A stretch of DNA of 23,617 nt from Chlamydiales bacterium (GTDB taxonomy: Bacteria; Chlamydiota; Chlamydiia; Chlamydiales; JBDQID01), in NCBI GenBank assembly GCA_047611865.1, contig JBLFWS010000037.1, forward strand, positions 1 through 23,617. The letters run 5' to 3'. Under the pieces are notes generated by a model. That model worked only from the letters and a program-made list of their open reading frames with translations, had not been told where the DNA came from and did no database searches. Position numbers and translations under genes: made by a program. Below, in pieces: positions 1,182 to 23,471 of the stretch. Position 1 is the first letter of the stretch. Each line of letters starts with the position of its first letter.

Positions 1182-2051
1182 ATGCTATTAGTTGATCCTG
1201 AAAGGATTAAGCATAATGAAGACTCCGCAGCAGATGTAAAGATTGAGTATGTTGGGAGACAGCGCTACCCCGTTCTTGTTGTGGATAACTTTTACTTGGA
1301 CCCGGAGTATGTAAGAGGCCTTGCTTTAGATCTCCACTATTCACCCGTTTTGACTTCTTCTTATCCAGGAGAGCAGGCCATCATCAGTTTACCTATGACA
1401 GAACTCTACTCATTTATTTACCGTCATATAGGAAAGCTTTATGGCTTATCGAAAAAAAGTACAATGGCTTTTGGTGATCAGATATTGAGGTTTTCACTAA
1501 TCAGGAAGCATGAAAAACCTAATCATGTGGAAATTGCTCACATAGATCCCACTCTTTTGCAAATACTTATTTATCTTACTCCTTCTGAAAAGTGTTTACC
1601 AGGCACTTTGTTCAAGCGACATAAGGAATATGATATTGATGAGCATGTCTTTGAAGTAGACACAATGAAAGCCGCGTATAAGCTCATAGGTTTATCCATA
1701 GGGGAAAGCGAGCCACAGTGTGTGGTTCAAGAAGCTATTTTGAGGAGAGTTATGAAAATGGGGCTATTTGCCCGTTATTTTAACTTACTTAAAGAAGGCA
1801 GGATGAAGAGTTTTCGAGATATGCAACTACTACTTGATACGGCAAGAGATAATTATCATTTGTGGGAAGCGTATCATTCCGTTGAAATGAAATTCAATCG
1901 TCTTGTGTGTTTCCCGGGATTTCTTTTTCACGCTCCATCTTGGGAGGAAGACGCATGGGATGGAGAAAGGAAGGAAGAATATCGATTAACGCAAAATTGT
2001 GCTGTTACCTGGCCTTTTAAATCAGGAAAGAGAAAGTGGTATTCGATTTAA
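1182..2051 (+). CDS. DUF6445-like 2OG/Fe(II) oxygenase-fold protein, subtype A, triad intact
   Basis: VLVVDNFYLDPEYVR and SYPG; AHIDP (HxD); MKFNRLVCFPGFLFH (distal His); YRLTQN (putative 2OG-binding Arg). RBS TAAGG(T) upstream. Confidence 0.8.
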   Translation: MLLVDPERIKHNEDSAADVKIEYVGRQRYPVLVVDNFYLDPEYVRGLALDLHYSPVLTSSYPGEQAIISLPMTELYSFIYRHIGKLYGLSKKSTMAFGDQILRFSLIRKHEKPNHVEIAHIDPTLLQILIYLTPSEKCLPGTLFKRHKEYDIDEHVFEVDTMKAAYKLIGLSIGESEPQCVVQEAILRRVMKMGLFARYFNLLKEGRMKSFRDMQLLLDTARDNYHLWEAYHSVEMKFNRLVCFPGFLFHAPSWEEDAWDGERKEEYRLTQNCAVTWPFKSGKRKWYSI

Positions 2052-2941
2052 CTAGAATGAGTTTGAACTCTGAAGAGAAGATGGAGATTTCTGTCGAGCA
2101 TATTGGGCGGAAAGGATATCCCATTCTTATTGTGGATAACTTTTATCGTGATCCCGAATACGTCATGCAGGTTGCGATGAGCATCCAGTATTACTATTCT
2201 ATGGGGGACTACCATCTTTTTAAACTGGGAGTTTATGAGCAAAGTCCTATGCTTATGGCTCAAATCGGAGTAGATCAATCTCCCATAAGTGACTTTCTTT
2301 ATAGGCACTGGGCATCGCATTATATCGACTCCTTTGAAAAGCTTCAACTCTCTGAGCACACAACGAGTTTGTTTGGAACAATAAAGACAGCTGATGAAGC
2401 GGAGGGAGTTTACGGATTTCGACCGCGTGATATAGGGGTACTTCTTTATGGCGTAATGTTTCTATCTCTTTTTGAGAAGGAGTCAGAGGGAATTGGCTTT
2501 TACCGAAACAGGGATGTGGATATTGAAGAAATTATCAGTTTACCACTTTTGGCTTCTCTTGAAGAAAAGTATCCTCAACAGGATCCTGAGATAATCAAAA
2601 GAGTTTGTGAGATGGGGATTTATGACCGTTTTCGTGAGCTGCAAGATGAGGGAAAGGTGGAAGATTACCTGGACCTCCTGGCTTGGGTTTATGAGGTACC
2701 GCCATCTGAATTAATGGACAAAATGATAGAGAAAGATCGGATGAGTGATAGATGGGAGCAGTACAGCTTTGTCGAGAAGAAATTTAATCGCCTGGTGGCT
2801 TTTCCAGGGTTTCTTTTGCATTCAATGGAGGTGAATTGTGAGTTAGGGGCAAAGGAGTCTGAGTTTGAGAATTTGCATCAATTTTTTATGTATCCGTGGA
2901 CTCCTGTTGTTGTGAATGGCAGGAGAGTGCCCTTGCAATAA
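2036..2941 (+). CDS. DUF6445-like oxygenase-fold protein, subtype B, HxD lost
   Basis: ILIVDNFYRDPEYV and KFNRLVAFPGFLLH. PRDIG sits where paralogues have PHVDP. The GTG start overlaps the upstream gene by 16 nt and aligns with the start of the 12886 paralogue. Confidence 0.8.
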   Translation: MVFDLTRMSLNSEEKMEISVEHIGRKGYPILIVDNFYRDPEYVMQVAMSIQYYYSMGDYHLFKLGVYEQSPMLMAQIGVDQSPISDFLYRHWASHYIDSFEKLQLSEHTTSLFGTIKTADEAEGVYGFRPRDIGVLLYGVMFLSLFEKESEGIGFYRNRDVDIEEIISLPLLASLEEKYPQQDPEIIKRVCEMGIYDRFRELQDEGKVEDYLDLLAWVYEVPPSELMDKMIEKDRMSDRWEQYSFVEKKFNRLVAFPGFLLHSMEVNCELGAKESEFENLHQFFMYPWTPVVVNGRRVPLQ

Positions 2942-2961
2942 AAGAGGATAGGAATTTTATT

Positions 2962-4185
2962 ATGCTTGGAAAGTTAATGTCATTGGAAGAGGAGGAGGTA
3001 TTTTTTCAAGATCATTTTGAAAAGAGCCCCATGATTCTTAACCGGGAGAATTCAGATAATTTTTCAGAGATTCTCTGTAATGATGAGGTAGATAAGATCT
3101 TTTCTTCCTGGGATCTGAAAAATTTGTCTCCAGAAGTGATTGGGAAAGAAGATTTTGATCTTTTCGACGGGGAAACAGATCGGGATTCTTGTTATAAGTT
3201 AAAGTCTACCAGAGGGGGAATTAAAGAACTTTTCAGGCTTTATGGAGATGGATATCCCCTTAAGTTAAACAATATGCAAAAAAATGCTTATCCTATCAGA
3301 GAAGTTTGCAGCATACTTGAAAATGTTTTTTTTAGTTTGGCCCCTCGTGCTGTAGTTTATCTTTTTCCCTGTATCTCTCGCTTCTCTATTAAAAGGGGTG
3401 CAGGGGATATGGATGCGTTTCTTTTTCAAATTTCGGGAAATACTCAGCTTCGAATTTCCAGGAATGAGCAAGGGAAGATGCAGGGAGATAAAGACTCTGA
3501 TTCTCAAGGTCTTATAGAGCAGGATCTAGTATTTTCCAGTGGAGGCCTGGCCTATATTCCCAAGGCTTATTCTATTGATATGCAAGCAGAAGAGCAGTCC
3601 TCGGCAAAAACTCTTTTGATTGAGTTTAGCGGTCTTTCAGTGAAAGATTTTTTATCTAATTTGGTCATGCAGCTGGCAAAGTTACACGAGAATGTAGATT
3701 TTCGTCGTAGCATCCCTCTATCCTGGGTAAAAGCTGGAAAAATGTTGGACGAATCAGATAGAGAGACGCAAGAGGCAAAGAAGATTCTTGGTAATTTACG
3801 GAGTTTTTTAAAAAGACCTGAGAATATTCAGCAGCTGCGTAAGCAGTTAAGTTCCTGGAAGGCAATGAAAGCAAAACCTCTCCTGAAAAGGCAGTTACTA
3901 TCCATCCATTCTCTGAAGCATTTAAGTGTAAACAGTGAAATCCAAATGAGAGCAACGGCCTATGTTTCTATGACGACAGGTCCTGAAGAATTGACGTGGA
4001 AGTTTTGTGGAAGCTCCTCCTCTTTCCCTCTGAATTTTGAAGAGGGCTTGAAGGGATTAATGTCAGGGGCGGAAGTACGCGTAAGGGATATAAAGGGGGA
4101 TATGCTACTGGAAGAAAAGTTTAATATGGCCAAGATGTTGGTAAGCGAGGGATCTTTTGAAATAATTTCCCATGAATTATCTTGA
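2962..4185 (+). CDS. YcfD/NO66-like JmjC (cupin_4) protein lacking metal ligands
   Basis: FFQDHFEKSPMIL N-terminus, DAFLFQISG, GGLAYIP and a winged-helix-like tail (VRVRDI...LVSEG). No HxD and no distal His. Start moved to ATG 2962 (RBS AGGATAGGA; aligns with paralogues). Confidence 0.78.
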   Translation: MLGKLMSLEEEEVFFQDHFEKSPMILNRENSDNFSEILCNDEVDKIFSSWDLKNLSPEVIGKEDFDLFDGETDRDSCYKLKSTRGGIKELFRLYGDGYPLKLNNMQKNAYPIREVCSILENVFFSLAPRAVVYLFPCISRFSIKRGAGDMDAFLFQISGNTQLRISRNEQGKMQGDKDSDSQGLIEQDLVFSSGGLAYIPKAYSIDMQAEEQSSAKTLLIEFSGLSVKDFLSNLVMQLAKLHENVDFRRSIPLSWVKAGKMLDESDRETQEAKKILGNLRSFLKRPENIQQLRKQLSSWKAMKAKPLLKRQLLSIHSLKHLSVNSEIQMRATAYVSMTTGPEELTWKFCGSSSSFPLNFEEGLKGLMSGAEVRVRDIKGDMLLEEKFNMAKMLVSEGSFEIISHELS

Positions 4186-4194
4186 GGAGGTGGA

Positions 4195-5397
4195 ATGTTA
4201 AAAAAGTTGATTGATCCCATAAGTGAAGAAGAGTTTTTTTCTGAATACTGGGAGAAGAAGCCATTGTTCATTCAAAGGCAGGACCCTTCTTATTTTTCAG
4301 GGCTAATGTCTTTTGAGGATTTGGACGAGATATTGACAGGCAGAGAGATCTTAGAAGAGAATTTACGGGTAATAGACACGCCGATTTCAAAGTGTTATGC
4401 GGGCAGTGATTTGAGTTGTAAGCTTGTTTATCATTACTATGGTAACGATAAAACTGTAGTGCTTAAACAAGTTCAAAGTTTGTGGGGTCCGGTTAGAAAA
4501 TTCTGCTACCTGATTAATAAGTCTTTTCGTTTTATAAGTGGGGTTTGTGCTAATGCATATCTTACACAGGCTGAGACTCAAGGTTTTGTGCCACATTATG
4601 ATACCCATGAAGTATTTATTGTGCAGCTAGAGGGATCTAAACTTTGGAAGCTTTACGATACCCTTTTGGATTTCCCCATGCCGAATCAGCCGGTTTACTC
4701 TGAGTTTCCTCAGGGTACTTCATTAGGAAGTCCGACGATGGAAGTAGAAATGTTTCCCGGGGATGTCTTGTATATTCCAGGCGGTCTTGTTCATGAGGCT
4801 AAATGTTTTGAAACAGCTTCTTTGCACCTCACTTTGGGATGGGATACGGTTACTTTTGCTGGTTTGTTGGACAGTCAGGCAAAAGCCTTTTCAGAAAAAT
4901 TCCCGGAACAGCAAGTTTCTATTCCCTTTGCTTCTTATTTTTTAGGAGCTCCAACCGGTGGAGAAAAGGAAAAGCAAGAAGCCCAGAAATGGGTGGAGAG
5001 TCTTGTGGATCAATATTTTGAGCCTTCAAAGTTTTCGATGGCATTGAGAGATATTTCGGGTGACTGGAGGGCAGGGCATGAGGTTTTTTTGGAAGGGCAG
5101 CTTAGGATGGCTGATAGCTTGAGAAAGGGGGAGTTATCTTTGAATAGTTTGATTGCTCCTAGAGATCCTTTTATTCCGTATTCCTGTGAGAAATCGGAGG
5201 AGGGCTTTGTGAATTTGTCTTTTCACGATACAAATCTTCGTGTGTCACAAGCCCAGGAAGAAATTTTTCGTCATATTCTCTCAATAGAAAAATGTAGAGT
5301 TAAGGATCTCCCTGGAGACCTTAGTGACAATGAAAAGTTAGATTTTATTCGTTTGATGGTTATGGAGTGTGTAGTCTCATTGAGTATAACAGAGTGA
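4195..5397 (+). CDS. YcfD/NO66/MINA-like JmjC 2OG oxygenase, triad intact
   Basis: FFSEYWEKKPL, ANAYLT, QGFVPHYDTHEVFIVQLEGSKLW and PGDVLYIPGGLVHEA. RBS GGAGGT. Confidence 0.9.
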   Translation: MLKKLIDPISEEEFFSEYWEKKPLFIQRQDPSYFSGLMSFEDLDEILTGREILEENLRVIDTPISKCYAGSDLSCKLVYHYYGNDKTVVLKQVQSLWGPVRKFCYLINKSFRFISGVCANAYLTQAETQGFVPHYDTHEVFIVQLEGSKLWKLYDTLLDFPMPNQPVYSEFPQGTSLGSPTMEVEMFPGDVLYIPGGLVHEAKCFETASLHLTLGWDTVTFAGLLDSQAKAFSEKFPEQQVSIPFASYFLGAPTGGEKEKQEAQKWVESLVDQYFEPSKFSMALRDISGDWRAGHEVFLEGQLRMADSLRKGELSLNSLIAPRDPFIPYSCEKSEEGFVNLSFHDTNLRVSQAQEEIFRHILSIEKCRVKDLPGDLSDNEKLDFIRLMVMECVVSLSITE

Positions 5398-5412
5398 ACG
5401 GCATAAGGGATT

Positions 5413-6606
5413 TTAGAATTCCGCATTGGTAAGACTTTTCTTTAAGTAGTTTATCAGGAGAGAGAATCGTGGGTAGCGGGCCTGGCTTGAAGTAGGGAAC
5501 CTTCTTTGGTTTTCCGAAAAGATTTTTTCCAGATATATTAGTGAGAACATCAATTTTATGAAGTTGATTTGATCTTCGGGTGGGAGTTCCTCTGCAGTAG
5601 AAAGGTATCCTTCCCGCCAGCTTGTGCAAATGTTTGCGATGTCTTCTTGTTGGCAGCATGTTTCAGAAAGTATCATCTGGGTGGTTTGTTCAAAGGATGC
5701 GAAGTCTGTAGCTGGTGATCCTATGGGGTTTCCGAAGCGGTCGATGGAAAAATGAGCTCCTGATACTCGGTGTAAAAAGAGTTGATCTTCTATATCCGCA
5801 TAAATGAATTGGTTTAGGTGGGCAAATCCTTGGGTAAAAGTACTGGGGTATTTTGTGATGCTTGCAAGTTGAAAGAGATGCAAAAAATATTTGTTTAAAA
5901 GGTGAAAATCGATATCTGGCAAATGGGGTAAGATTTCATTAGCAGGGCCTAAAAGGGATTTGTAATGTTGGATGAGGCTTTTTGGCCATGTCATTTCCTG
6001 GCCTTTTTGGAAGGAGTGCAGTTCACCAAGAGCAAGGCCTATTTTTTTTACAAGCGTGTGGATTTTTTCCAGTGCTTTGTTGTAAGGAAAGGTTTTGAAG
6101 CTGTCTTTAAGAAACTTCTCCGCATTACTTCCGCTGTGGCTGGTGTAAATATGGTGAAGAAATTCTCTGACATCGCTTTGATGCTTTCCTAGCCATATGA
6201 GTTGGGGGCTGGAAATATTTTTCATTGTTATTTTTGAATACAGCTCTATGCCTGATAGAGACTGTATAACGGTATCCTGTGAACCCTGCTTGATAAGGGT
6301 TATTACAGGATCTAGATATTGTGTAAGAGGTTCTTCCGGGAATGCTGAGGTCCACCCTGGCAAGGTGGAAAAAGGGCTTGGAACCAAGTCCATATTTTTT
6401 TGGTTATAGGATTTAATCTCTTTATTTATAGTCTCGTAGGGTTCTTTGGGATCTCTTGTAATTCCGTAGTCTTTGGCGATTGAGCAGATATTTTGAAAGG
6501 CTGTAAAAGCGCGAAGATCATTTTCACTGGTGTATACAACATCTGCGGTGGTGAACCGTGCTTCGATTGCAAATGCTAGAGCTTTGTCTACAATTTCTTC
6601 CATCAT
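5413..6606 (-). CDS. Maltokinase/APH-like protein-kinase-fold protein with degenerate catalytic motifs
   Basis: IGLALGELHS; TQGFAHLNQFI (compare HGDLHLGQVL); SPATDFAS (compare SPLRDVAG); WREGYL. The likely start is ATG 6606 or 6603, since the 6711 start would overlap the divergent gene. Confidence 0.6.
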   Translation of the reverse strand: MMEEIVDKALAFAIEARFTTADVVYTSENDLRAFTAFQNICSIAKDYGITRDPKEPYETINKEIKSYNQKNMDLVPSPFSTLPGWTSAFPEEPLTQYLDPVITLIKQGSQDTVIQSLSGIELYSKITMKNISSPQLIWLGKHQSDVREFLHHIYTSHSGSNAEKFLKDSFKTFPYNKALEKIHTLVKKIGLALGELHSFQKGQEMTWPKSLIQHYKSLLGPANEILPHLPDIDFHLLNKYFLHLFQLASITKYPSTFTQGFAHLNQFIYADIEDQLFLHRVSGAHFSIDRFGNPIGSPATDFASFEQTTQMILSETCCQQEDIANICTSWREGYLSTAEELPPEDQINFIKLMFSLIYLEKIFSENQRRFPTSSQARYPRFSLLINYLKKSLTNAEF

Positions 6607-6685
6607 GAAAATATATAGTGGTTTTTCTTTTATCTTGGCAGAATTCTCTCTTGTGAACAAGAGTTGATTCTTGGAGGTCGAGCTG

Positions 6686-7546
6686 ATGGGACAAGAAATG
6701 AGTTTGAACAAGGAAAGGTTAGAGCTGAATCATCCTTCCAGGATGGTTATTCAAATGGATAATTTTGAAGGAAAGAAATTCCCAATTATTGTGGTAGATA
6801 ACTTCTATAAAGATCCCGATTACGTTAGAGAGCTAGCCTTGAGTTTGGATTACCAAGAAAACAGAGGTCATGCTTATCCAGGTGTAGAGGCAACGATTGA
6901 GTTTGATAGCAGAAAATTTTGGGCGTTTATTTATCGATATTTTGCGAGACAATTTGGGTTTACTGCCAAAAGTCTTAAGGTCAATACTGTATCTGAGTTG
7001 AAATTTTCTATGATAGGATCGTCTGGTTCTGAGGGGTACCCCATACAAATTCCTCATGTGGACCCCAATTTGTTGCAGGGTTTAGTTTTTCTCAACCCTC
7101 CTGAGCAATGCAAGGGAGGGACATCTTTTTTTACGAATAAAGAAATGGGATTTGGAGAGGTTGTTGGAGATGTTGAGGTATTGAGCTATACCTTTGGATT
7201 ACTTGGGCATCCAGACTTTGCCGGGTGGCAAAGTTCTTTAGACGGAAGAGTGATAAACAACCTTTTGAAGATGGGCCTTCATACGGAGTTTTTCGAATTG
7301 TCAGATAAAGACAAAACTATAGATTACAACTCTTTAAGGAGAGCTCTCTCTTTGGAGAATTCTTTGTTGACAGATTTCTGGGAAGAAAAGAAGGCTATTG
7401 AGATGAAATACAATCGTCTTGCCTGTTTTCCAGGTTTCTTTATTCATTCGGTATTTTGTGAAAGCGGGTGGTTTGGAGATAAAAAGGAAGAAATGAGACT
7501 GACGCAAAATTTCGGAGTTCCCTGGCCTTACTGTTTGGAGGTATAA
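6686..7546 (+). CDS. DUF6445-like 2OG/Fe(II) oxygenase-fold protein, subtype A, triad intact
   Basis: IIVVDNFYKDPDYVR, AYPG, PHVDP, GGTSF, MKYNRLACFPGFFIH and RLTQN. GGAGG at 6673-6677 supports ATG 6686. Confidence 0.83.
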   Translation: MGQEMSLNKERLELNHPSRMVIQMDNFEGKKFPIIVVDNFYKDPDYVRELALSLDYQENRGHAYPGVEATIEFDSRKFWAFIYRYFARQFGFTAKSLKVNTVSELKFSMIGSSGSEGYPIQIPHVDPNLLQGLVFLNPPEQCKGGTSFFTNKEMGFGEVVGDVEVLSYTFGLLGHPDFAGWQSSLDGRVINNLLKMGLHTEFFELSDKDKTIDYNSLRRALSLENSLLTDFWEEKKAIEMKYNRLACFPGFFIHSVFCESGWFGDKKEEMRLTQNFGVPWPYCLEV

Positions 7547-7547
7547 T

Positions 7548-8981
7548 ATGCATCAGGATTGCCTTCTTGCTATAGATATTCCTGCTTTGCTTACGGAGCT
7601 TAGAGACTTACTTTCGTCGCCTATTGATGGAGCATCTTTAGCTGTTTTCAGGCTATTGTATGGAGCCATTTTTTTTGTTCATTATATCATAGGCTGGGAA
7701 TTTGAAGTTTTACGCTATACCAACACATCGTATAATTTTCATTACGAACTTACTCCATTTATTGTCCCATTAAAAAAAAGAGGCATGAATCTTTTATTGG
7801 GAATTCAGATTTTAGCAGCTTTTTCTTTAGCAATTGGTTTTTTATCTCCTTACTCGGCTTTTATTTTATTTCTGACTAGTGCTTACAAGCTATTGATGGA
7901 TAAATCTTTGTACACCAATCACGCTTATCTTCATGTATTGATATGCTTGCTCTTGAGTGTCGTTGATGCTGGGAAAGTTATGTCGATGGATTCTTATTTA
8001 TGGGGTAGTGGGGAGCAAGGTTTTGAGATTTCTTTTTGGCAGGTGCTGATTTTTAAGTTACAGATTTTGATTGTCTATTTCTATGGAGGGATGAGCAAGC
8101 TAAATTATGATTGGCTGTTTCGGGCGATGCCCCTTCGAAATTTGTTTGCCGACAAGAGCTATTATTTCCTGCAGCGAAATATAGGAAGGTTTATTAAGGG
8201 AGAGAGTTCTCAATATACTGCTCGTGTTTTTTCTTTTTTTATTATTCCTTATTTCGCGGCATGGTCTGGAATGTTTATAGACCTGTTTGTCATCTGGTTC
8301 ATGCTGTTTGAAGAGACCCTTTATTATGCATTAGCGATATATTTGTGTTTTACAGTACTAAATCACAAGTTTTTTGAAATTGGAACTTTTCCCTACATGA
8401 ATTATGCCTTTGTCGTTCTTTTTCTAAGTCAAGTATACTCTCGTAGCGTTGTGGGTCTATTTTTTGGAGATACTCAGGGAGGGTCCGGAGCTGATCTTTT
8501 CATGTCTGATTTTGAATTCTTTTTTTTTATAGTTTATTTAGCCATACAGTTGGTCATACCCATGAGAAGGTTTGTGAAAACCTACATCATTCGCTTGGGA
8601 AAGAGCGATATTCATGCAGATAATGCCTGGTATTTTTCCTGGAATATGATGCATGCAGTAAAGCATGGGAAAGTGAGTTTTGATGTCTACGACTTGTCTA
8701 CAAAGAGATCTTTGTCTTTAGAGGGTGTCAGTCACGAACAGATCGTCTTGGGTACTAAGCAGGAACATTGTCTGAGGACGAGGCCACGCTGTGCTATTCA
8801 ATATGTGAAATTTTTGGAAGGCATTTTGAGAAGGAATGCTTATAAAAATTTTGGCATCAGGGTAAACAGTCAGATTGATATTAACTGTAGCGGAATGAAA
8901 ATGAAGATCAATCCGAGAGCCAATTTATGTAAGGAAGAAGTGAAGGCGTATGGTAGCTATTGGTGGCATTTGGATGATTAA
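7548..8981 (+). CDS. HTTM-domain membrane protein, vitamin K-dependent gamma-carboxylase-like
   Basis: PIDGASLAVFRLLYG, YTNHAYL, QILIVYFYGGMSKLNYDWL, IGTFPY and FSWNMM follow GGCX motifs in order. Several hydrophobic helices are followed by a soluble C-terminal domain. Confidence 0.88.
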   Translation: MHQDCLLAIDIPALLTELRDLLSSPIDGASLAVFRLLYGAIFFVHYIIGWEFEVLRYTNTSYNFHYELTPFIVPLKKRGMNLLLGIQILAAFSLAIGFLSPYSAFILFLTSAYKLLMDKSLYTNHAYLHVLICLLLSVVDAGKVMSMDSYLWGSGEQGFEISFWQVLIFKLQILIVYFYGGMSKLNYDWLFRAMPLRNLFADKSYYFLQRNIGRFIKGESSQYTARVFSFFIIPYFAAWSGMFIDLFVIWFMLFEETLYYALAIYLCFTVLNHKFFEIGTFPYMNYAFVVLFLSQVYSRSVVGLFFGDTQGGSGADLFMSDFEFFFFIVYLAIQLVIPMRRFVKTYIIRLGKSDIHADNAWYFSWNMMHAVKHGKVSFDVYDLSTKRSLSLEGVSHEQIVLGTKQEHCLRTRPRCAIQYVKFLEGILRRNAYKNFGIRVNSQIDINCSGMKMKINPRANLCKEEVKAYGSYWWHLDD

Positions 8982-9002
8982 GTGATTTACAGAACTTCTC
9001 TC

Positions 9003-9043
9003 GGCCTTGTTGCATGGTCCGTGAAGACCCATGCAACAAGGCC
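9003..9043. mobile_element. 41-bp miniature inverted-repeat element with IS903-like ends; possible terminator between convergent genes
   Basis: Perfect 15-bp inverted repeat GGCCTTGTTGCATGG (9003-9017) / CCATGCAACAAGGCC (9029-9043), flanked by the 8-bp direct repeat CTTCTCTC (8995-9002 and 9044-9051). Confidence 0.75.
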
Positions 9044-9050
9044 CTTCTCT

Positions 9051-10472: not shown

Positions 10473-10617
10473 TTCTTTACCTTTACCTTAGAGAAATTAA
10501 TTATAATCTTATATTTCCAAGTGGAGCTTTAAAGGTAGCAAGCCTGGGAATAATTGAATATATACTACATATGATTTTTTTGATAACCTAAGGGAAATGT
10601 GTGCTTAGGAAAGGATT

Positions 10618-14832: not shown

Positions 14833-14850
14833 TTTATTCCTGTTAAATTG

Positions 14851-14965
14851 GGGTGCAACCATAAGTGGAGGTGAGTCTTTTTTTTGTTACTCTTGTGAAT
14901 AGACGAAGCCTTCGGACTCATGAATAGTAACAAAAAAAGACTTACCTCCACTTATGGTTGCACCC
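14851..14965. mobile_element. 115-bp MITE with long terminal inverted repeats and a 9-bp target-site duplication
   Basis: GGGTGCAACCATAAGTGGAGGTGAGTC(T8)GTTACT pairs with AGTAAC(A7)GACTTACCTCCACTTATGGTTGCACCC, with one mismatch and one indel. GTTAAATTG lies at both 14842-14850 and 14966-14974. Confidence 0.88.
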
Positions 14966-15011
14966 GTTAAATTGTTTTAAATTGCGATGTAACGTCCTCA
15001 AATCATAGGAT

Positions 15012-16079: not shown

Positions 16080-16275
16080 TCACCCTCAAAAAGCATGGGA
16101 TTGATGAGCACACACTGCTCTTTCTAAATGTGTTTAGTTTTTTTTCAACCGATGTTTACTAAAGCGAGTAAATCCTATGCATCTTTAACAAGTGAGATAG
16201 GAGTTTTTTCAAAATCATTTGGTAATAATCTTTACTTAGTTATCGTATGGATTAAAGAAATATGTAAAGGATTCT

Positions 16276-17415
16276 ATGCTTGAAAAGTTTATGAGTTCTG
16301 ATTCGGAAGATACTTTTTTTCAAGAACATTGGGAAAGGTCTCCAATGATTATATTTGGTGAGGACGCGGGGTATTTTCAGGACATACTCACTGATTCAGA
16401 CATCGATTATATCTTATCCTCCTTTATCAGTCTGAAGTTGAAGATTCATGTTTGGGAGGGAGAGAGTTTTGTGCCATCTTTTAGGGTAGATGGGCAAGCG
16501 TACCTGGGTACAAAAGAAGCATATAAAAAGTATGGGGAAGGGAGAGCCGTAGAAATTAGAAATCTCAAAGAATGCTGGCAGCCCGTCAGGGAGAGCTGCA
16601 GTATTTTGGAAAGGGGTATGCGCAGTATCAATACGGAAGGAAGTGCTGTGTTGATTCCATCAGGAGGGCAAGCTTTTTCCAAGATAGAGAAGAGGTCTCA
16701 CACATTTTTTATTCCGATTTTAGGGGAACTTTTTTTAAGGATTTTTTCTTGTCAAGATATTGAAGGAGGCCTTGAAAAGGCCGTTTACAAGGAATTTTCC
16801 TGTAAAGCGGGGGATTTTATTTATATCCCTCCTGGGTATCGCTATGAAGTTAATGAGGCTTTGGATCCGGCACTTCTCCTTCTCCTGTCTTTTGAACAGT
16901 ATACCTGGAAAAGTCTTATCGAAAATGTCCTAGGAAAAGTAGAGGAGAACGAGGGGATTTTGAATAGGCGCATCCCCATGAAATATTTGAAGGGGGGAGC
17001 AGCCAGAGAGTGGAAAGAAGAGGAAGAAGTTTTTTGCTCATTGACGGATTCTTTTCTTGTGAGGGCTGTGCGGGATAACTTGTCCTTGGGGCAGATTGTG
17101 TCCAGTCAGTCTCTTGACAAGAGGCGTTTGGAGGTCGTAAACAGGGTGGAGGAGATCACTTTGGACAGCCTCTTGAAAATGAGAAAAGAATGTTCTTTTT
17201 TCCTTTATACAGATGAAAGAGATTTACAGTGGCTTGTTACAGCTGGACAAACTAAGTGCCTTGTGGAAAGCGAGGAAAGGGAAGCTTTGGATTTTGTTCA
17301 AAGAGCTGGGGAATACAGAGTTAAAGATATTCCGGGTTTTGCAGCGACTCGCCAATGTCTGGATTTCGCAAGGTTTTTACTTTCGCTCGGAGTGGCGGAA
17401 ATGGGGGTAGAGTAA
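16276..17415 (+). CDS. YcfD/NO66-like JmjC protein lacking metal ligands
   Basis: FFQEHWERSPM, GDFIYIPPGYRYEV (no His), FSKIEKRS at the HxD site and a YRVKDIPG tail. Its N-terminus most resembles the 2962 gene. Confidence 0.8.
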   Translation: MLEKFMSSDSEDTFFQEHWERSPMIIFGEDAGYFQDILTDSDIDYILSSFISLKLKIHVWEGESFVPSFRVDGQAYLGTKEAYKKYGEGRAVEIRNLKECWQPVRESCSILERGMRSINTEGSAVLIPSGGQAFSKIEKRSHTFFIPILGELFLRIFSCQDIEGGLEKAVYKEFSCKAGDFIYIPPGYRYEVNEALDPALLLLLSFEQYTWKSLIENVLGKVEENEGILNRRIPMKYLKGGAAREWKEEEEVFCSLTDSFLVRAVRDNLSLGQIVSSQSLDKRRLEVVNRVEEITLDSLLKMRKECSFFLYTDERDLQWLVTAGQTKCLVESEEREALDFVQRAGEYRVKDIPGFAATRQCLDFARFLLSLGVAEMGVE

Positions 17416-18623
17416 TGTCCATGCTTAGTCGCCTTATTCATCCAATGGAGGAAGAAGAATTTTATTCCGTTTACTGGGAGAAAAAGCCTTTTGTCATCCA
17501 TCGGAAGAAAGCGGACTTTTACCAGGATTTACTGACTTTTAACGGCATGGATGAGTTGCTGAGAGACAGGCTTCCGGAGGAAGGGAACAAATTTAGGCTT
17601 ATTTCAGGAGATGAAAATCAAGAGCAGAATCTAGAAAAAGGCTATTCAGGAAGGGTAAATAAAGCGGGCACTGTAAACGATAAGCTTTGTGCTTATGGCT
17701 TGGGAGCTTCAATTATTCTGAACTCTGCGGATGTGTTTTCGGGAGGAGCTTTAGGGAAGTTCTGTCGGCAGTTGGAGGAGGATTTGAAATGCTGTAAGGT
17801 CTTTACCAATGTGTATATGACGCCTGCTAATGCTCAGGGTTTGGAGACTCATGCGGACTTTACAGATGTCTTTGTTTTACAGCTTGGCGGAAAAAAGGTC
17901 TGGAAAATTTACTCATCTATAGAAGAGTCTTTGAATTCGGAGGAGCATGAACATTTCATCAGCAATCCTGGAGAAGTGACGATGGAGTTTGTTCTTGAGG
18001 AAGGCGATGTTCTTTATATTCCCAGAGGGTATGTTCATTCCGCAAGTACAAGGAGTAGCTCTTCTCTTCACGCGACAATGGGGATTATTCGTTTTAGCTG
18101 GGAAGATTTTTTAAAAAGGGTAAAGGATCTTCTTTCCAAAAGAAATTCTATCCTGGCGACACCTGTACCACTCTTTCCTTTTATCGTCGATGCTCCTACC
18201 GACATGCATGACTCTTCTTTAGAAGAAACAGAGAAGCAGTATCGGAGTGCTGTGGAGTCTTTGTTTGACTTGTCAAATTTGAGTCAAGGTTTGGAAGATT
18301 ATCTATTCTGGTTTAAGGGGAGTAGAGAGCCCTCTCTTGAGGGACAGAAAGCTGTGATGGATGGATTGAATAGGCTCTCTCTCGATTCTGATGTCTGTGT
18401 GAGAGATGGTTTTCAATATAATTTTTCCGCTTTAGACGGAGAGTACGTTTTATGGTTTCATGATAAGCATATTTTCCTGTCAGCAGAAGAGTTTGAGGCC
18501 TTCCGTTATCTTGTATCGAGTGAGAGGTGTAAAGTCGGGGAAATTTCCCGTGTTCTCACAGCTGAAAAGAAGTTGGACTTAGTCAAAGATCTTTGTAAGG
18601 AGTGTATTTTACGGCATGTTTAG
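17415..18623 (+). CDS. YcfD/NO66/MINA-like JmjC 2OG oxygenase, triad intact
   Basis: FYSVYWEKKPF, NVYMTP, QGLETHADFTDVFVLQLGGKKVW and GDVLYIPRGYVHSA. TAATG stop/start overlap at 17413-17417; ATG 17421 is an alternative start. Confidence 0.9.
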   Translation: MSMLSRLIHPMEEEEFYSVYWEKKPFVIHRKKADFYQDLLTFNGMDELLRDRLPEEGNKFRLISGDENQEQNLEKGYSGRVNKAGTVNDKLCAYGLGASIILNSADVFSGGALGKFCRQLEEDLKCCKVFTNVYMTPANAQGLETHADFTDVFVLQLGGKKVWKIYSSIEESLNSEEHEHFISNPGEVTMEFVLEEGDVLYIPRGYVHSASTRSSSSLHATMGIIRFSWEDFLKRVKDLLSKRNSILATPVPLFPFIVDAPTDMHDSSLEETEKQYRSAVESLFDLSNLSQGLEDYLFWFKGSREPSLEGQKAVMDGLNRLSLDSDVCVRDGFQYNFSALDGEYVLWFHDKHIFLSAEEFEAFRYLVSSERCKVGEISRVLTAEKKLDLVKDLCKECILRHV

Positions 18624-19494
18624 AAAGCTTTTACAGAAGACAAAGGAAAAATGTTTTATCAGCAGCTTTCAAAAGCAGCTTCCTCTGTTGTTTCAAGATC
18701 ATGAACCTGATGGGTTTTCCTGGCTTATGAGTCAGGAAGATATGAGCCAGATATTTGAAAAGAAAGGATCCCGATATTACAAGATTTTTGTGCCATGTCA
18801 GGGGGCGTTTCGAAGCTTTAATGGTGAGGTGGAAGAGGCTTTGAGAAAGTATGAGGAGGCTTTTCCTGTCTGGATCCGAAATTTGAAAGACAGCCACGCC
18901 CAACTAAGGGAGTTGTGTTTCTCCTTGGATAGAGTGACTTTGTGCAAGGAGAGCTTTGCTTCTCTTGCCTGGATCCCGGAGCAGGCTGAGGAATTTACCT
19001 TTTCTTTGGGTTTATGGGATGCCTTTTACTTGAATATGGAAGGGGAGGTTCAGCTAGAGGTGAGTGTTCCAAAGGATGGGGAAAGTTTTAAGGTTCGAGA
19101 CATTGATCCAGGAGGAAAAGGCTGGGAAAAGGTGAAGGAAATTTCTTTGAGTAAAGGGGAGATGATTTACATCCCTCGCAATAATAGCGTCACCGTAAAG
19201 CCAGCCAAGAATGAAGCCGCTAAAATTATTGTCTTGGGCTTTCTTAGTTACACTTGGGGTGATGTGATTGACAAGGTTTTGTACGTGAAGTCACCTTCGA
19301 AAAAAGAATTGAAGGACTCTGTGCCTACAGAATGGCTGAAGTCTTCACAAATTGTGTCGTCACAGGAAAATGAAGCCGTTATAGAAAAGTTCCACAGGAT
19401 TTTTACCGGACAGCTAAGCTATTCTTTGGCGAAGGCAATCATTCGTAAAGAGATAGCCATAAAGCGTGGAGTTTCCGGAAAAGGGAATAGCTGA
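18616..19494 (+). CDS. Short, highly degenerate JmjC/cupin_4-like protein
   Basis: FISSFQKQLPL, IRNLK, DAFYLNMEG, GEMIYIPRN and SYTW. No metal ligands and no C-terminal winged-helix-like tail. Overlaps the upstream gene by 8 nt. Confidence 0.7.
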   Translation: MFRKLLQKTKEKCFISSFQKQLPLLFQDHEPDGFSWLMSQEDMSQIFEKKGSRYYKIFVPCQGAFRSFNGEVEEALRKYEEAFPVWIRNLKDSHAQLRELCFSLDRVTLCKESFASLAWIPEQAEEFTFSLGLWDAFYLNMEGEVQLEVSVPKDGESFKVRDIDPGGKGWEKVKEISLSKGEMIYIPRNNSVTVKPAKNEAAKIIVLGFLSYTWGDVIDKVLYVKSPSKKELKDSVPTEWLKSSQIVSSQENEAVIEKFHRIFTGQLSYSLAKAIIRKEIAIKRGVSGKGNS

Positions 19495-19508
19495 TACGAG
19501 GAAGGACT

Positions 19509-20384
19509 ATGCTGAATCAATGGATTGATCCTATAGAAGAGGAGGAGTTTTTTAGCCGATATTGGGGAGCCGAAGCTCTTTTGATAAAAGGAGATGGAAA
19601 AGCAAATTTTGCGAATATTTTGTCTGGAAAGGACTTGGAAGAAAAGCTTTCAAGTGGAGCTATTCCTCCTCATTTTATCTATGTGGAAGGAATGGGGGAA
19701 CTTGCAAGAGAGCGCGAGAAGGCTTTTAATGCCAATGAAGAGAATGATGATATTGCTCTTGCCAAGCAGTTAATGAGTTTTTCCAGGTCTTACGAACAAG
19801 GGCTATCTTTGAGATTTCTTGAAGCAGAGGTGTACTGTCCTCTTATAGAGGTATATAAGGCGGGGCTCAGGGAGAAGATTCCATGTAGGGAGATCCTTTC
19901 TTCTCTTATTATAAGTCCTCTACGGGGGCGAGGGATTACGGGGAAGAGCAGAGATAAGGATTTTTTTCTGCTTCAGCTTGAAGGTTCAACAACTTGGGAT
20001 GTACAGGGGAAAATCCAAGGAAAATATAGCTTGGAACCAGGAGATTTCCTCTACCTTCCGGCAGGCTTTTCTTATAGAACTAAAGGGATGGAGGAGAGGT
20101 CTTCGTATATTTGTTTTTCATTGACTCCTTATACTTGGCTTGACTTGATGAAGGAATCGTTGGCGGATTTTTCAGCAGATCCAAAAAAAACTTCGGCCTT
20201 GCCATTTTCTCAGGCATTTACAAGGACCCCCATCGGGGGCAATGAATTGGATGAGGAGACCTTTGATAAAGTTTATAAAGAGAAGATATCCTCTCTTCTG
20301 GAAGATTCGATGCTTGAAAAAGCTTTGTCTAGTCTTTCTCAAGGGGATAGGAGTTATTCTACAAATAAGGATAGGATACAGTGA
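19509..20384 (+). CDS. Short degenerate JmjC/cupin_4-like protein
   Basis: WIDPIEEEEFFSRYW, DFFLLQLEGSTTW, LEPGDFLYLPAGFSY (no His) and YTWLDL. RBS GAGGAAGGA. Confidence 0.78.
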   Translation: MLNQWIDPIEEEEFFSRYWGAEALLIKGDGKANFANILSGKDLEEKLSSGAIPPHFIYVEGMGELAREREKAFNANEENDDIALAKQLMSFSRSYEQGLSLRFLEAEVYCPLIEVYKAGLREKIPCREILSSLIISPLRGRGITGKSRDKDFFLLQLEGSTTWDVQGKIQGKYSLEPGDFLYLPAGFSYRTKGMEERSSYICFSLTPYTWLDLMKESLADFSADPKKTSALPFSQAFTRTPIGGNELDEETFDKVYKEKISSLLEDSMLEKALSSLSQGDRSYSTNKDRIQ

Positions 20385-21334
20385 GGCCACAGGGAATGAA
20401 AAAGATTTTAGTTACCGGAGGAGCCGGCTTTATAGGAAGTAACTTGATTGGACGTTTATTGCCCTTGGGATATGAAGTTATTTGTTTAGATAACTTAAGC
20501 TCCGGGAGTTTGAAGAATATCGAAGAATTTATGGGACATGGGCATTTCCAATTTGTGGAAGGGGATGTAACAGTCCCTTTTAGAAATGACGTAGACTTTA
20601 TATATAATTTAGCTTGTCCTGCTTCCCCGGTAAGTTATCAATCAGACCCTATTCAGACTATGAAGACATCAATACTAGGGACGATGAATATTTTGGACCT
20701 GGCGTGTGCGTGTGGAGCAAAGGTGTTACAGGCTTCGACCTCTGAGGTATATGGAGATCCTGATGTACATCCTCAAGGTGAGAAATACTGGGGTAATGTC
20801 AATCCCATGGGAGTGCGGAGCTGTTATGATGAGGGGAAGCGTGCGGCAGAATCCTTGTGTTTTGATTACTATCGACAGCGTGGAGTAGATGTTCGGGTAG
20901 TACGTATCTTTAATACTTATGGTCAGAAAATGGCTGTGAATGACGGAAGGGCAGTCAGCAATTTTGTAGTCCAGGCTTTAAGAGGGGACGATATTATCAT
21001 CTATGGAGATGGGAAACAGACGCGTTCTTTTTGTTACATAGAGGATATGTTGGACGGTTTTTTAACTGTGATTAATTACGAGGGTAAATTTTTGGGACCT
21101 GTTAACCTCGGGAACCAGGAAGAGGTAAGTATCTTTGAGCTTGCCTGTCTTGTAAAGAAATTGACAGGGTCGGAATCACCTATTGTCCACGTCAAGGCTT
21201 TGGGCGACGATCCCCTTCGCCGTAAACCTCTCCTTGATTTGGTGAAGGACACTTTTAGCTGGGAGGCAAAAGTGTCTTTGAGGGAGGGATTAGAGGATAT
21301 TATCAGGTATTTCCGGAAGCAAGTGATGGTTTAG
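20381..21334 (+). CDS. uxs: UDP-glucuronate decarboxylase (UDP-xylose synthase), extended SDR
   Basis: ILVTGGAGFIGS, YNLACPASP..YQ, ASTSEVYGDP.VHPQ, YWGNVNP.G.RSCYDEGKR, RIFNTYG, QTRSFCY and DDP.RR. Start is GTG 20381 (GTGA overlap) or ATG 20396. Confidence 0.92.
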   Translation: MRPQGMKKILVTGGAGFIGSNLIGRLLPLGYEVICLDNLSSGSLKNIEEFMGHGHFQFVEGDVTVPFRNDVDFIYNLACPASPVSYQSDPIQTMKTSILGTMNILDLACACGAKVLQASTSEVYGDPDVHPQGEKYWGNVNPMGVRSCYDEGKRAAESLCFDYYRQRGVDVRVVRIFNTYGQKMAVNDGRAVSNFVVQALRGDDIIIYGDGKQTRSFCYIEDMLDGFLTVINYEGKFLGPVNLGNQEEVSIFELACLVKKLTGSESPIVHVKALGDDPLRRKPLLDLVKDTFSWEAKVSLREGLEDIIRYFRKQVMV

Positions 21335-21395
21335 CTCGTGTATTAAAATTACGAAACGTGGCTTGGAGCCTTTTTCAGTAATTTTAATAGACGGC
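21335..21395. repeat. Inverted-repeat element filling a convergent intergenic gap (terminator and/or MITE remnant)
   Basis: Perfect core TATTAAAATTAC (21341-21352) / GTAATTTTAATA (21378-21389), an inner GGCT/AGCC stem, and TTAG on both flanks (21331-21334 and 21396-21399). Confidence 0.6.
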
Positions 21396-23471
21396 TTAGA
21401 AACCCGATATGAGGATTTTTGCGGGCATCTTTGTTTCCGATGAAGTAATCATAAATTGAGCGCCTTTATCTTCCAGGCAGGTGGCGGTACAGCAAGCCGT
21501 TAGTCTTCCCATCCACATTTTGAAAGAAATCTCTACGGACGATTTTGGACCGAAGCTGTCAGTCTCTCCGGTGAGTGTCAAGTGGGTAAGATCTTCCTTT
21601 TCGAAGTGAGGGGTCATTTTTGTATTCGCTATAGAGAATTCTTTTTTAGAGAGGAGGCTTTCGAATTGTTCTCGAATTGTTATAGAAGGAATACAGTCAG
21701 GGATAAGTATGAATTTATCTTTTTTAATCTTTTGAAGGATAATTTCGTGAAGTTTTTTTAAACTAAGGCTTTCTGAACCAGGATGGGTTTCTGAGGCTAC
21801 ATACAGTATGTTGCAAGCGTTAAGGAGTCTGTCATTTATTGGGTCAAAATAGACTTTACGTAAATCCTGGAAATATCTTTTGATGTCACTTTTTTTCTTG
21901 TGTGTTTCTATTATAAATTTGCTAAGGATTTGGATGTTTTTCTCATAATCATCGGTTTCAAATGAGTTGTGGAGGCAATCGGCTGCGAGTTCGCATTCTT
22001 TGGCGATAGCTTTATTATTTTCAGGAAGCATTTTACAAGGATATCTTGTGGGCCTGAAGCTTTGTTGGCCTGTAGTACAAGCATGTTGTTTAAGACGAAG
22101 GTAAGGTTTTCCCAAGTACATTGCCAAGCTAGCAGTATTTTGCCCTTCGAATACGGAAGGAAGAGAGGCCTGGTTGAATACGTATTGGTACAATTCAGGC
22201 GGGATATTGTGGAGGGAGAGAATGAGAATTTTTGTTTTTTCGTTTTTTATAAAGCGCTTTATATGGCCTGAGAATTCGTCTAAATTTGCGATACTTAGGG
22301 AGGAAAGGAATTGGACGCTAATGCCGTTATCAGTGATCATTTTTAATGATGCAGAAACTTTTTCGATGTTTTTCTGGGTCATTAGAGTTCTTTCTAGACG
22401 TTCACTGTAGCTTTTAATTAAGAGGGCTAATTGAATTGTCGTTTGGTCTCTGAGACCTTCTGTTTGGTTTTTTTGGAATAGTTCACTATATTCATTTATA
22501 TCAGTTTGTAGGTTAATCTTTAGATCCTCAAAAGCATAGGAAATGGTGGGGCTTCCCATGATGAAATATTGGCTTTGGTCCAAGCAGTACTTAGGGAAGT
22601 TTTTTTCATTTTCTAAAAGTAGTATAACGGTTTTGCCTACTTGACTGTTTTCTTTTTTTTGAGCTTGAAGGATTCCTGCGGTTAGATTGGAAAGGATTTC
22701 TTCTGGTTCTATGTCAACTTGGCCGCCACCCATACTTAGTCCATAGACGGGGCATAATTCGATTTTTTTTTCTTGGACGTAGCCTAATAAAGACTTTGTC
22801 ATTTTTATGCGCAGTTGTTCTTTTTCTTCCGGAAAGTCTTTCTCGATATCTTCCCAATTAATGGCATCTTCTACAGAGGTTGGGTAGCGGAATATATAGT
22901 CGTTGAAGTTGTTGTCGATTCCATAATTTCCACCGAGGTAACAGGTCTCGGCATCTTTAATAAATATGTGATCTTCAATGTACCATTTTGCCGGGAATAC
23001 GTTCAGGAGATACTGGGCATTGAGCATATTTACCAAGGTATCTCGGGGCATGCTTAGGATGAATTCTTGTTTGCTATTGATTTCAAATCCCCCTGCAAAA
23101 GCAAAAGTGCATGGTTCTTTGAAGAGAGGTTTGTTATCGAAATATTCGACGAAGCTTACGGTAGCTTTTGCTATTTTGATAGGGGTAGCGGGATCTTTGA
23201 AAGAAGGGAAAAGTAGCTTGATTTTTTCAATGATAGAAATTCCGCCGTCGTAGACAAGGACAATGTTGATTTCTGCATCGAGCATGATGCTGAGCTGTTT
23301 GATGATATGAGCGCATGAGGATTGGTGTCCCAGCCTTTTGGAGAAATCCATAAGAAAACGAATTTCTTTTTGTTTTTTGAGTTTTTCTAAAAATGATTCA
23401 AAAGTCAGGAAAGCTTTAGTTCGCTCTCTTTCTGAGGCTTGAAGGAGTCTTTGATGTAATTCGCGAAGCAT
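21396..23471 (-). CDS. Large hypothetical protein, probable GT-B fold glycosyltransferase-like
   Basis: N-terminal IRFLMDFSKRLGHQSSCAHIIKQL (strand, GH, helix) and C-lobe HNIPPELYQYVFNQASLPSVFEGQNTASLAMYLGKPYL resemble GT-B/EarP patterns. RBS AAGGA. The CDS is solid; the function is tentative. Confidence 0.55.
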   Translation of the reverse strand: MLRELHQRLLQASERERTKAFLTFESFLEKLKKQKEIRFLMDFSKRLGHQSSCAHIIKQLSIMLDAEINIVLVYDGGISIIEKIKLLFPSFKDPATPIKIAKATVSFVEYFDNKPLFKEPCTFAFAGGFEINSKQEFILSMPRDTLVNMLNAQYLLNVFPAKWYIEDHIFIKDAETCYLGGNYGIDNNFNDYIFRYPTSVEDAINWEDIEKDFPEEKEQLRIKMTKSLLGYVQEKKIELCPVYGLSMGGGQVDIEPEEILSNLTAGILQAQKKENSQVGKTVILLLENEKNFPKYCLDQSQYFIMGSPTISYAFEDLKINLQTDINEYSELFQKNQTEGLRDQTTIQLALLIKSYSERLERTLMTQKNIEKVSASLKMITDNGISVQFLSSLSIANLDEFSGHIKRFIKNEKTKILILSLHNIPPELYQYVFNQASLPSVFEGQNTASLAMYLGKPYLRLKQHACTTGQQSFRPTRYPCKMLPENNKAIAKECELAADCLHNSFETDDYEKNIQILSKFIIETHKKKSDIKRYFQDLRKVYFDPINDRLLNACNILYVASETHPGSESLSLKKLHEIILQKIKKDKFILIPDCIPSITIREQFESLLSKKEFSIANTKMTPHFEKEDLTHLTLTGETDSFGPKSSVEISFKMWMGRLTACCTATCLEDKGAQFMITSSETKMPAKILISGF

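Follow-up and report, generated by a model that had tools for sequence, protein, structure and literature searches.

The 23,617-base contig JBLFWS010000037.1 of a Chlamydiales bacterium, here called C37 and, as the whole stretch of DNA analyzed, the window, carries 19 open reading frames (ORFs) that pack positions 1182 to 23471 with hardly any spacing and include no housekeeping gene. An earlier account drawn from the letters of this DNA (the sequence-only reading) had counted the same 19 consecutive genes and proposed that they form a line for the hydroxylation, carboxylation, and glycosylation of a protein or peptide encoded elsewhere. In the 3.59-Mb genome (272 contigs, 95.5% complete), the island's gene families occur only on the window contig and on a second contig of 13 kb, C96, so their clustering is not a matter of chance; together the two contigs make up a 36-kb set. 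Our preferred interpretation, to which we give a probability of roughly 40%, is that this set is horizontally acquired and paralogue expanded and that it decorates either a protein or ribosomal peptide encoded elsewhere or a product of its own. Decoration of a polypeptide is favored because the non-oxygenase members with characterized relatives (VKGC, EarP, borosin methyltransferases, and the GT41 partners of TIGR03032) are by analogy all polypeptide directed and because no nonribosomal peptide synthetase (NRPS), ligase, halogenase, or glycan export gene accompanies them.

Twelve of the 19 genes are oxygenase-like, and their 13 domains fall into three families: five DUF6445 domains, six of the JmjC_2 (cupin-4) family, and two of a third family, one of them fused to DUF6445. 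All five DUF6445 (PF20043) domains exceed the Pfam cut-off of 24, with 62.7 bits at 1182 to 2051 (subgroup A), 43.7 bits at 2036 to 2941 (subgroup B), 59.8 bits at 6671 to 7546 (subgroup A), 24.6 bits in the C-terminal half of the fusion gene at 11316 to 12902 (subgroup A), and 49.4 bits at 12886 to 13773 (subgroup B); these and all other oxygenase-like genes of the island lie on the plus strand. Three of the six JmjC_2 copies pass that profile's cut-off of 22, namely, those at 4195 to 5397 (87.2 bits), at 17355 to 18623 (100.9 bits; start probably 17415 or 17421), and at 19509 to 20384 (26.3 bits), and the copy at 2896 to 4185, whose real start is probably 2962, lies just below it at 19.6 bits, with BLASTP agreeing on its family; the copies at 16276 to 17415 and 18616 to 19494 were assigned by BLASTP to their paralogues only. 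Those at 18616 and 19509 are short and lack the C-terminal domain. The third family has no Pfam model and comprises the gene at 10618 to 11307 and the N-terminal half of the fusion gene, which are 39% identical. A model of the 10618 protein (mean predicted local distance difference test score [pLDDT], 71.7) has the 2-oxoglutarate (2OG) oxygenases OkaE, FtmOx1, and Pseudomonas putida P4H as its best Foldseek matches (E, ∼3e-9), with AsqJ as another; OkaE, FtmOx1, and AsqJ are small-molecule oxygenases. Searches of PDB sequences with DUF6445, TIGR03032, and third-family proteins returned nothing useful, and no solved DUF6445 structure was found in the PDB.

The sequence-only reading was right that 12 genes carry 2OG oxygenase or JmjC folds of three families, but only 4 of the 13 domains keep the iron-binding HxD...H triad: the DUF6445 proteins encoded at 1182 and 6671 and the JmjC proteins encoded at 4195 and 17355. 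We aligned the six JmjC paralogues and read the triad against the HMMER alignment of the 17355 protein to human NO66; in four of them (2896, 16276, 18616, and 19509), non-ligand residues occupy all three positions, and judged by these residues, the four cannot be classed as oxygenases. The DUF6445 motif HxD...H...R-x-T is kept at 1182 (as H-I-D ... H ... R-L-T) and 6671, and HxD is lost at 2036, at 12886, and in the C-terminal half of 11316; outside this organism, 11 of 11 aligned proteins have the full motif, whether they come from phage loci, from other bacteria, or from a further chlamydial genome. Both third-family copies in the window have likewise lost H-x-D, which is kept in 3 of 3 phage members, and the distal H-W-R is invariant. 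On these alignments, triad loss is particular to the island. The altered sites were considered as halogenase-type HxA/G variants, a candidate that was rejected since the first histidine is missing too. Copies without the triad are called dead below and those that keep it live. The live JmjC protein encoded at 17355 matches human NO66 at an E value of 8e-28 and Escherichia coli YcfD far more weakly (E, 2e-6). YcfD, NO66, and MINA hydroxylate protein residues.

Live and dead paralogues adjoin one another along the island, which is laid out in four plus-strand runs of tight or overlapping genes (1182 to 5397, 6671 to 8981, 10618 to 13773, and 16276 to 21334). In the first run, a live subgroup A and a dead subgroup B DUF6445 gene (1182 and 2036) are followed by a dead and a live JmjC gene (2896 and 4195); in the second, the live DUF6445 gene at 6671 precedes a carboxylase-like gene at 7548; the third holds dead domains only; and the fourth has JmjC genes in the order dead, live, dead, dead, followed by a UDP-xylose synthase gene that ends the run at 21334. 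The dead copies are all open and full-length, though the paralogues are only 20 to 40% identical. A homologue search with the dead JmjC protein encoded at 16276 found one relative, P0275, which has the same length and 51% identity and shares both the non-ligand residues at HxD and the tyrosine at the distal histidine position. The only contig on which P0275 occurs, a metagenome contig, is 15,811 nucleotides long, as is the only contig of P0002, a 50%-identical orthologue of the island's glycosyltransferase (GT; see below), and because the two share one such contig, at least this part of the island appears to have a counterpart in a second organism, in which the dead state is already established. 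The dead state would therefore be old and kept, and the ninefold loss of iron sites would be kept across two organisms, an orthologue being seen for one of the dead copies.

A structure prediction for the complex of the 1182 and 2036 proteins scored 0.74, compared with 0.06 for the best of three controls, with at least 63% of contacts in agreement between runs and a partner pLDDT of at least 76. Of 157 solved complexes, 116 scored at least 0.74, as did 2 of 215 mismatched pairs, counts that hold only roughly here since the complex used custom alignments. This live/dead DUF6445 pair is thus predicted to dimerize, and because no DUF6445 structure has been solved, the score is unlikely to reflect a structure already known to the predictor. 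We infer a partnership between the live copies and the dead ones. An experimentally demonstrated precedent for such an arrangement, covered in the review PMC12141560, is given by TlxI/TlxJ and TlxA/TlxC, heterodimers of an active Fe/2OG oxygenase and an impaired paralogue that aids substrate binding. The island resembles these in having an impaired paralogue beside an active one, with the dimer predicted only in the case of 1182/2036; it differs in scale and setting, in that the Tlx enzymes, which serve talaromyolide biosynthesis, are fungal, act on a small molecule, belong to another oxygenase family, and form two pairs, whereas the island has nine dead domains in three families.

The gene at 7548 to 8981 (plus strand) encodes a vitamin K gamma-carboxylase-like membrane protein, bearing out the gamma-carboxylase-like assignment made from the sequence alone. 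It matches the HTTM (PF05090, 161.6 bits) and VKGC lumenal (PF22777, 62.5 bits) models of Pfam and human VKGC at an E value of 7e-17 (HMMER), is the sole HTTM gene of the genome, and begins just after the live DUF6445 gene at 6671, which stops 2 bases short of it. Like VKGC/GGCX, the protein combines an HTTM and a lumenal domain and has equivalents of K218, D263, and N290 (human VKGC numbering), which were read by hand from the HMMER alignment, with the numbering of chains 9wfn_A and 13ib_A offset by 31; these three are named as catalytic residues in bioRxiv 10.64898/2026.03.26.714578. Unlike human VKGC, it has 477 rather than 758 amino acids, lies 2 bases after a DUF6445 gene, and belongs to a genome in which no VKOR was found. 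Giant-virus VKE, an epoxidase-only relative, is truncated according to the same preprint, whereas the island protein keeps its lumenal domain. MenD is present in the genome (437 bits), so a naphthoquinone cofactor should be available.

Two minus-strand genes, at 13765 to 14862 (356.8 bits) and 15012 to 16079 (414.3 bits), encode TIGR03032 proteins, as the sequence-only reading had it; both exceed the NCBIfam hypothetical-equivalog cut-off of 251.5, both carry DUF4915, and they are 59% identical to each other. In the spacer between them, one base at position 14898 is missing in contigs from two of three public runs. A search for longer TIGR03032 relatives found 1,746 proteins at an E value of ≤1e-10, and a hand count of the 120 best of these recovered fusions to GT41 (PF13844, OGT-type) with TPR (∼49), to GNAT (∼45), to GT2-type (∼14), GT4 (2), and GT9 (1) domains, and to sulfotransferase (3) and the Asp/Asn beta-hydroxylase domain PF05118 (1).

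A UDP-xylose synthase (UXS; UDP-glucuronate decarboxylase) had also been named and is encoded at 20381 to 21334 on the plus strand, overlapping the preceding gene by 4 bases; it matches the Pfam Epimerase model and human UXS1 at an E value of 2.1e-106 over residues 6 to 315, the next family following at 4.5e-39. Together with the UDP-glucose dehydrogenase (UGDH) encoded on C96, it provides, on the evidence of homology, a complete route from UDP-glucose to UDP-xylose. Elsewhere in the genome there are a second UXS gene (53% identical; G000:C17, 23943 to 24863) and a second UGDH gene (38% identical; G000:C163, 1257 to 2579). Because of these, UDP-xylose probably serves more than one pathway in the organism.

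The last gene of the island (21396 to 23471, minus strand) encodes a 691-amino-acid protein for which we found no Pfam match and, with phmmer against PDB sequences, nothing at an E value of ≤1. A model built from 28 relatives (pLDDT, 81.4) nevertheless supports the GT-B fold that had been proposed: EarP chains rank first, with a Z score of 16.7 and a root mean square deviation of 3.9 over 346 of 377 residues, compared with a Z score of 13.3 for the best non-EarP GT-B chain, and Foldseek gives EarP a probability of 1.00 and a template modeling (TM) score, by target, of 0.60. EarP (GT104), the nearest solved fold, is the rhamnosyltransferase that glycosylates an arginine of the protein EF-P. Unlike EarP, with which it shares 9% sequence identity, the island protein exceeds it in length by ∼300 residues and has, besides a helical insert, an additional beta domain at the C terminus (about residues 615 to 676). 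A profile search of a library of 1.8 billion proteins recovered 607 representatives of the family at an E value of ≤0.001, either as proteins of ∼500 to 600 amino acids or as the N-terminal 540 residues of proteins some 3,700 to 4,300 amino acids long; none of the 28 members used for the model matched a glycosyltransferase or EarP Pfam model at an E value of ≤0.01. Both of the two giant proteins scanned carry LysM. They are encoded by metagenomic ORFs, at 8015 to 19615 of locus L010 (3,867 codons) and 7424 to 18532 of locus L011 (3,703 codons), both measured stop to stop, with the EarP-shaped GT domain first and LysM further on. EF-P itself was considered as the target of the GT and rejected, since both EF-P genes of the organism (loops ...KPGKGQ... 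and ...VAKGTP...) depart from what we take to be the arginine-type loop motif.

Contig C96 carries a class II amidotransferase-like gene, a live/dead DUF6445 pair (one of the two copies has H-x-D), an 846-amino-acid protein with a TP_methylase domain, the UGDH, a 570-amino-acid GT paralogue 36% identical to the EarP-like GT, an S-adenosylmethionine (SAM) methyltransferase, and a P4H-type 2OG oxygenase. Residues 67 to 424 of the 846-amino-acid protein (4768 to 7308, minus strand) match the borosin alpha-N-methyltransferases dbOphMA/OphMA (E, 9e-68) and SonM (E, 5e-41) over the methyltransferase and clasp region. Unlike the borosins, the protein has an extension of 420 residues instead of a short core peptide, and its neighbors are oxygenases and a GT rather than a borosin-type protease. 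Read by eye, this tail of ∼420 residues looks like three repeats of ∼90 amino acids. No core peptide was identified; the C-terminal tail is a candidate for the core, or substrate, of a peptide made on the ribosome and modified after translation (RiPP).

Among the Chlamydiota genomes searched, the island's families are absent or nearly so. None of 400 other genomes gave a TIGR03032 match; 1 of 399, genome G210, has the GT family, as a distant stand-alone gene; 1 of 40 relatives (G022) has DUF6445, as distant single genes with no island neighbors in the short loci retrieved; and 7 of 399 have JmjC_2 above the cut-off, each in a single copy, with 26 to 35% identity in the five compared. Because of this distribution, the island is, on the evidence of gene content, foreign to the phylum as sampled and horizontally acquired, and a foreign origin also fits the repeat and transposase remnants at its edge. 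The GC content of the contig, 0.408, lies inside the genome's spread of 0.416 ± 0.012 (contigs over 10 kb), so its composition shows no sign of recent transfer.

Outside the phylum, DUF6445 is common on viral contigs, from which 63 loci were retrieved, and in a phage collection it was matched in 13 records, all of them cyanophages or marine viruses; neither the HTTM nor the TIGR03032 proteins matched anything in viral scans. JmjC_2 and DUF6445 occur together in 4 of the 63 viral loci (L041, L056, L065, and L081), joined by the third family in L041, L056, and L081, by P4H-like genes in L065 and L081, and by a tandem DUF6445 pair in L041 and L056. Positions 741 to 19976 of L056 hold four tryptophan halogenases and about ten 2OG oxygenases, with three Gly_rich_2 genes ahead of them; the oxygenases represent five families and include the tandem DUF6445 pair, one JmjC_2 gene, and one third-family member. 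In another locus, L085 (Synechococcus phage Sf-FS3, 1655 to 10278), DUF6445 directly follows a 2,424-amino-acid tail-fibre-type gene labeled "peptidase S74 domain." Iyer, Abhiman, de Souza, and Aravind described Syn9-type dioxygenase arrays in 2010 (PMC2938197), which they read as amino acid-derived secondary metabolism, and L056 is an array of the type described there. The three oxygenase families thus do occur together, a fact already published there, and DUF6445 may be the "Syn9-gp52 family" of that article. The names DUF6445, TIGR03032, and DUF4915 were not found in the literature that we searched.

What is new relative to the published arrays is the ninefold iron-site loss and the added genes. 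As in the Syn9-type arrays of PMC2938197, a MINA/NO66-like JmjC family is clustered with several distinct classical 2OG oxygenase families. Unlike them, the island adds the VKGC-like protein, TIGR03032, the EarP-like GT, and UXS, and no tryptophan halogenase was found by Pfam in the 20 proteins of the window or the 10 of C96; the window also differs from JOR/JmjC and Syn9-type neighborhoods in having no SapC or TonB receptor. Most of the island's copies are triad-less, whereas the phage copies aligned keep the triad. The combination of nine iron-site losses with an EarP-shaped GT family and with TIGR03032 and VKGC linked to oxygenases was not found in the literature searched.

If the two contigs do decorate a polypeptide, the four intact Fe/2OG oxygenases (two DUF6445 and two MINA/NO66-like JmjC proteins) would hydroxylate side chains. 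Each would belong to a hetero-oligomer whose other subunits, the iron-less paralogues, are auxiliary or hold the substrate, the role that TlxI has for TlxJ. UGDH and UXS would supply UDP-xylose, and the two EarP-shaped GT-B proteins, aided by the two TIGR03032 propeller proteins, would put the sugar on the substrate. The VKGC-like membrane enzyme might use menaquinol and oxygen to carboxylate a residue, or to activate it through a strong base, on the periplasmic side, and the borosin-type methyltransferase, SAM methyltransferase, and P4H-like oxygenase of C96 could add further marks. The genes would then share one common substrate, presumably a polypeptide, and the sugar transferred would be xylose. 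A stronger version, in which the iron-less paralogues of all three families are substrate recognition or scaffold subunits of one multi-subunit protein-modifying machine built around the four live hydroxylases, its product a bacterial protein or ribosomal peptide with both xylose-capped hydroxylated residues and vitamin K-dependent gamma-carboxylation, is a long shot.

Several observations weigh against decoration of a polypeptide by this set, and the scheme of the sequence-only reading stands in part: the borosin homologue on C96, the TIGR03032 fusions, the EarP fold, and the VKGC residues support it, but with 9 of 13 oxygenase domains lacking the iron triad, this is not a line of 12 hydroxylases, and an island with that many dead catalytic domains could be decaying. 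No substrate gene was identified, and gamma-carboxyglutamate (Gla)-type proteins were not searched for; the intergenic gaps of the window hold no precursor-like ORF, in keeping with the earlier statement that the window has no NRPS, PKS, transporter, or precursor, and no NRPS or exporter gene was found by Pfam. No other genome searched showed the complete set of families together, so that of the co-occurrence elsewhere that had been looked for, the oxygenase trio is found, in cyanophage arrays, but the full set is not. Among bacterial DUF6445 loci, 0 of 8 had another island family within 10 kb, in a scan that used one genome per species and short degenerate patterns and so under-samples the family, and the GT relative in G210 has no island neighbor. 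The shared oxygenase trio travels with tryptophan halogenases in cyanophages, for which the published interpretation (PMC2938197) is small-molecule chemistry. The predicted 1182/2036 interface joins equivalent segments of the two paralogues and may be a homodimer surface of the family rather than a specific heterodimer. Neither VKOR, for the recycling of the quinone epoxide, nor FG-GAP proteins, candidate clients of TIGR03032, were found in the 95.5%-complete genome. Finally, the oxygenases, GT, and TIGR03032 proteins look cytoplasmic by eye, whereas the lumenal-type domain of the VKGC-like protein should face the periplasm, so that a single substrate would need to cross the membrane between steps.

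The two kinase-like genes also count against the scheme, in that they are language-model leads only, and their membership in the system is uncertain. The sequence-only reading had named two kinase folds, which ESM Atlas leads agree with but Pfam does not support: at E values of up to 5, it gave nothing for the gene at 5413 to 6711 (minus strand; start probably 6606) and only chance-level rows for that at 9051 to 10472 (minus strand), among them a clostridial translocation domain (E, 0.052) that was disregarded as such. The 5413 protein matches APH-like clusters, of a phosphotransferase fold, at TM scores of 0.62 to 0.66 in the Atlas structure rows, a lead only, with no canonical HxD...N motif evident. 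A 24%-identical paralogue lies on contig C42 (15033 to 16124, minus strand), and both have A-H-x-(N/E)-x-F-x-Y in place of the kinase H-x-D...N. The two may belong to a kinase-like family of this genome that is divergent or inactive. The 9051 protein is PI3/PI4-kinase-like (Atlas features, 0.95; structure TM scores, 0.42 to 0.49; likewise a lead only), its matches including a LepB_N cluster, and its sequence has an H-T-D-x4-N stretch and a later D.

The island's assembly is reproducible because contigs from public sequencing runs match the window almost completely. Its DNA is present in contigs from three ice-metagenome runs, two of which may be the source sample; one public-run contig of 22,591 nucleotides spans positions 3618 to 23617 with zero differences, and the third run differs from the window by three base changes and one intergenic 1-base indel (14898) over 20 kb. 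No RNA data set was listed among the public runs holding this DNA. At the island's edge are a minus-strand transposase-like fragment at 2 to 157, labeled so from a reading of its peptide, and a plus-strand GxxExxY/PDDEXK_3 gene at 567 to 989, a multicopy element of the genome whose protein has copies or fragments on 11 other contigs by tblastn, one of them 97.9% identical on contig C100. This repeat and the transposase-like fragment probably explain the break of the assembly at the window's edge, and both C37 and C96 begin with mobile or repeat remnants. In the window, a tRNA scan found none, no ribosomal genes are nearby, and a promoter and terminator scan gave the same counts as shuffled sequence.

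Alternatives to decoration of a polypeptide rank in the order of small-molecule tailoring, secreted effectors, an envelope glycan, and decay. The first, an amino acid-derived secondary-metabolite pathway in which the oxygenases tailor a free amino acid or a small nonribosomal peptide and the GT xylosylates the product, is unlikely though the strongest of the four. The viral loci speak for it: JmjC_2 and DUF6445 cluster in four of 63, with the third family in three and P4H-like genes in two, and L056, with its four tryptophan halogenases, is an array of the Syn9 type that PMC2938197 interprets in this way. The small-molecule oxygenases OkaE, FtmOx1, and AsqJ among the Foldseek matches of the third family and the APH-like fold, a small-molecule kinase fold, are also consistent with it. 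However, C37 and C96 have no NRPS, ATP-grasp ligase, halogenase, aminotransferase, or exporter; the relatives of the VKGC-like, EarP-like, and borosin-type proteins act on polypeptides; and most of the oxygenase copies cannot bind iron.

Somewhat less probable is that an intracellular bacterium secretes these proteins as effectors that act on its host independently of one another; duplication would then have expanded eukaryote-like NO66/MINA oxygenases, a PI-kinase-like protein, and kinase-like proteins, with the dead copies as decoys or binders. The greater similarity of the live JmjC protein to human NO66 (E, 8e-28) than to E. coli YcfD (E, 2e-6), the LepB_N cluster in the PI3/PI4-kinase-like lead, and the placement of the source organism's relatives in one order would fit this, and paralogue expansion is reportedly known in chlamydiae. 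Against it stand the operon-like layout with metabolic genes (UXS in the window and UGDH on C96), the polytopic membrane enzyme, which cannot be a secreted effector, and the live/dead pairing and predicted dimer, which suggest complexes.

We regard as improbable an envelope glycan locus in which UDP-xylose and the GT-B proteins make or decorate a xylose-containing lipo-oligosaccharide or polysaccharide and the TIGR03032 proteins and oxygenases modify the glycan. The presence of UXS and UGDH, the fusion of TIGR03032 also to GT2/GT4 domains and sulfotransferases, and the second UXS (53% identical) and UGDH elsewhere in the genome are compatible with such a locus, but C37 and C96 lack a polyprenyl-phosphate transferase, flippase, polymerase, or export gene, and we know of no glycan substrates for JmjC/cupin-4 proteins, VKGC, or borosin methyltransferases. 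Very improbable is a decaying foreign island with dead oxygenase copies as functionless relics, for while iron ligands are lost in 9 of 13 domains and mobile-element remnants flank the island, all 19 ORFs are open and full-length despite 20 to 40% identity among paralogues, an orthologue of the dead copy at 16276 is full-length and 51% identical and is dead at the same positions, and the three public runs differ by only 3 bases and one intergenic 1-base indel over 20 kb.

No job is known for DUF6445, TIGR03032, the third oxygenase family, or the EarP-shaped GT, and no substrate for bacterial VKGC; here, all five families lie together with a peptide methyltransferase and a sugar donor pathway in 36 kb of DNA on two contigs, a set small enough to be expressed. 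Its coexpression combined with open-search mass spectrometry offers a direct route to its chemistry. If the pairing of live with dead copies is what it appears to be, it would extend the principle of the auxiliary pseudo-oxygenase, described for TlxI/TlxJ, from one fungal pathway to three bacterial families, and a multi-subunit machine of the kind outlined above, if true, would bring the first Gla modification in a bacterium and give TIGR03032, DUF6445, and the unnamed GT family their first role. An answer obtained here would probably carry over to the dioxygenase arrays of cyanophages.

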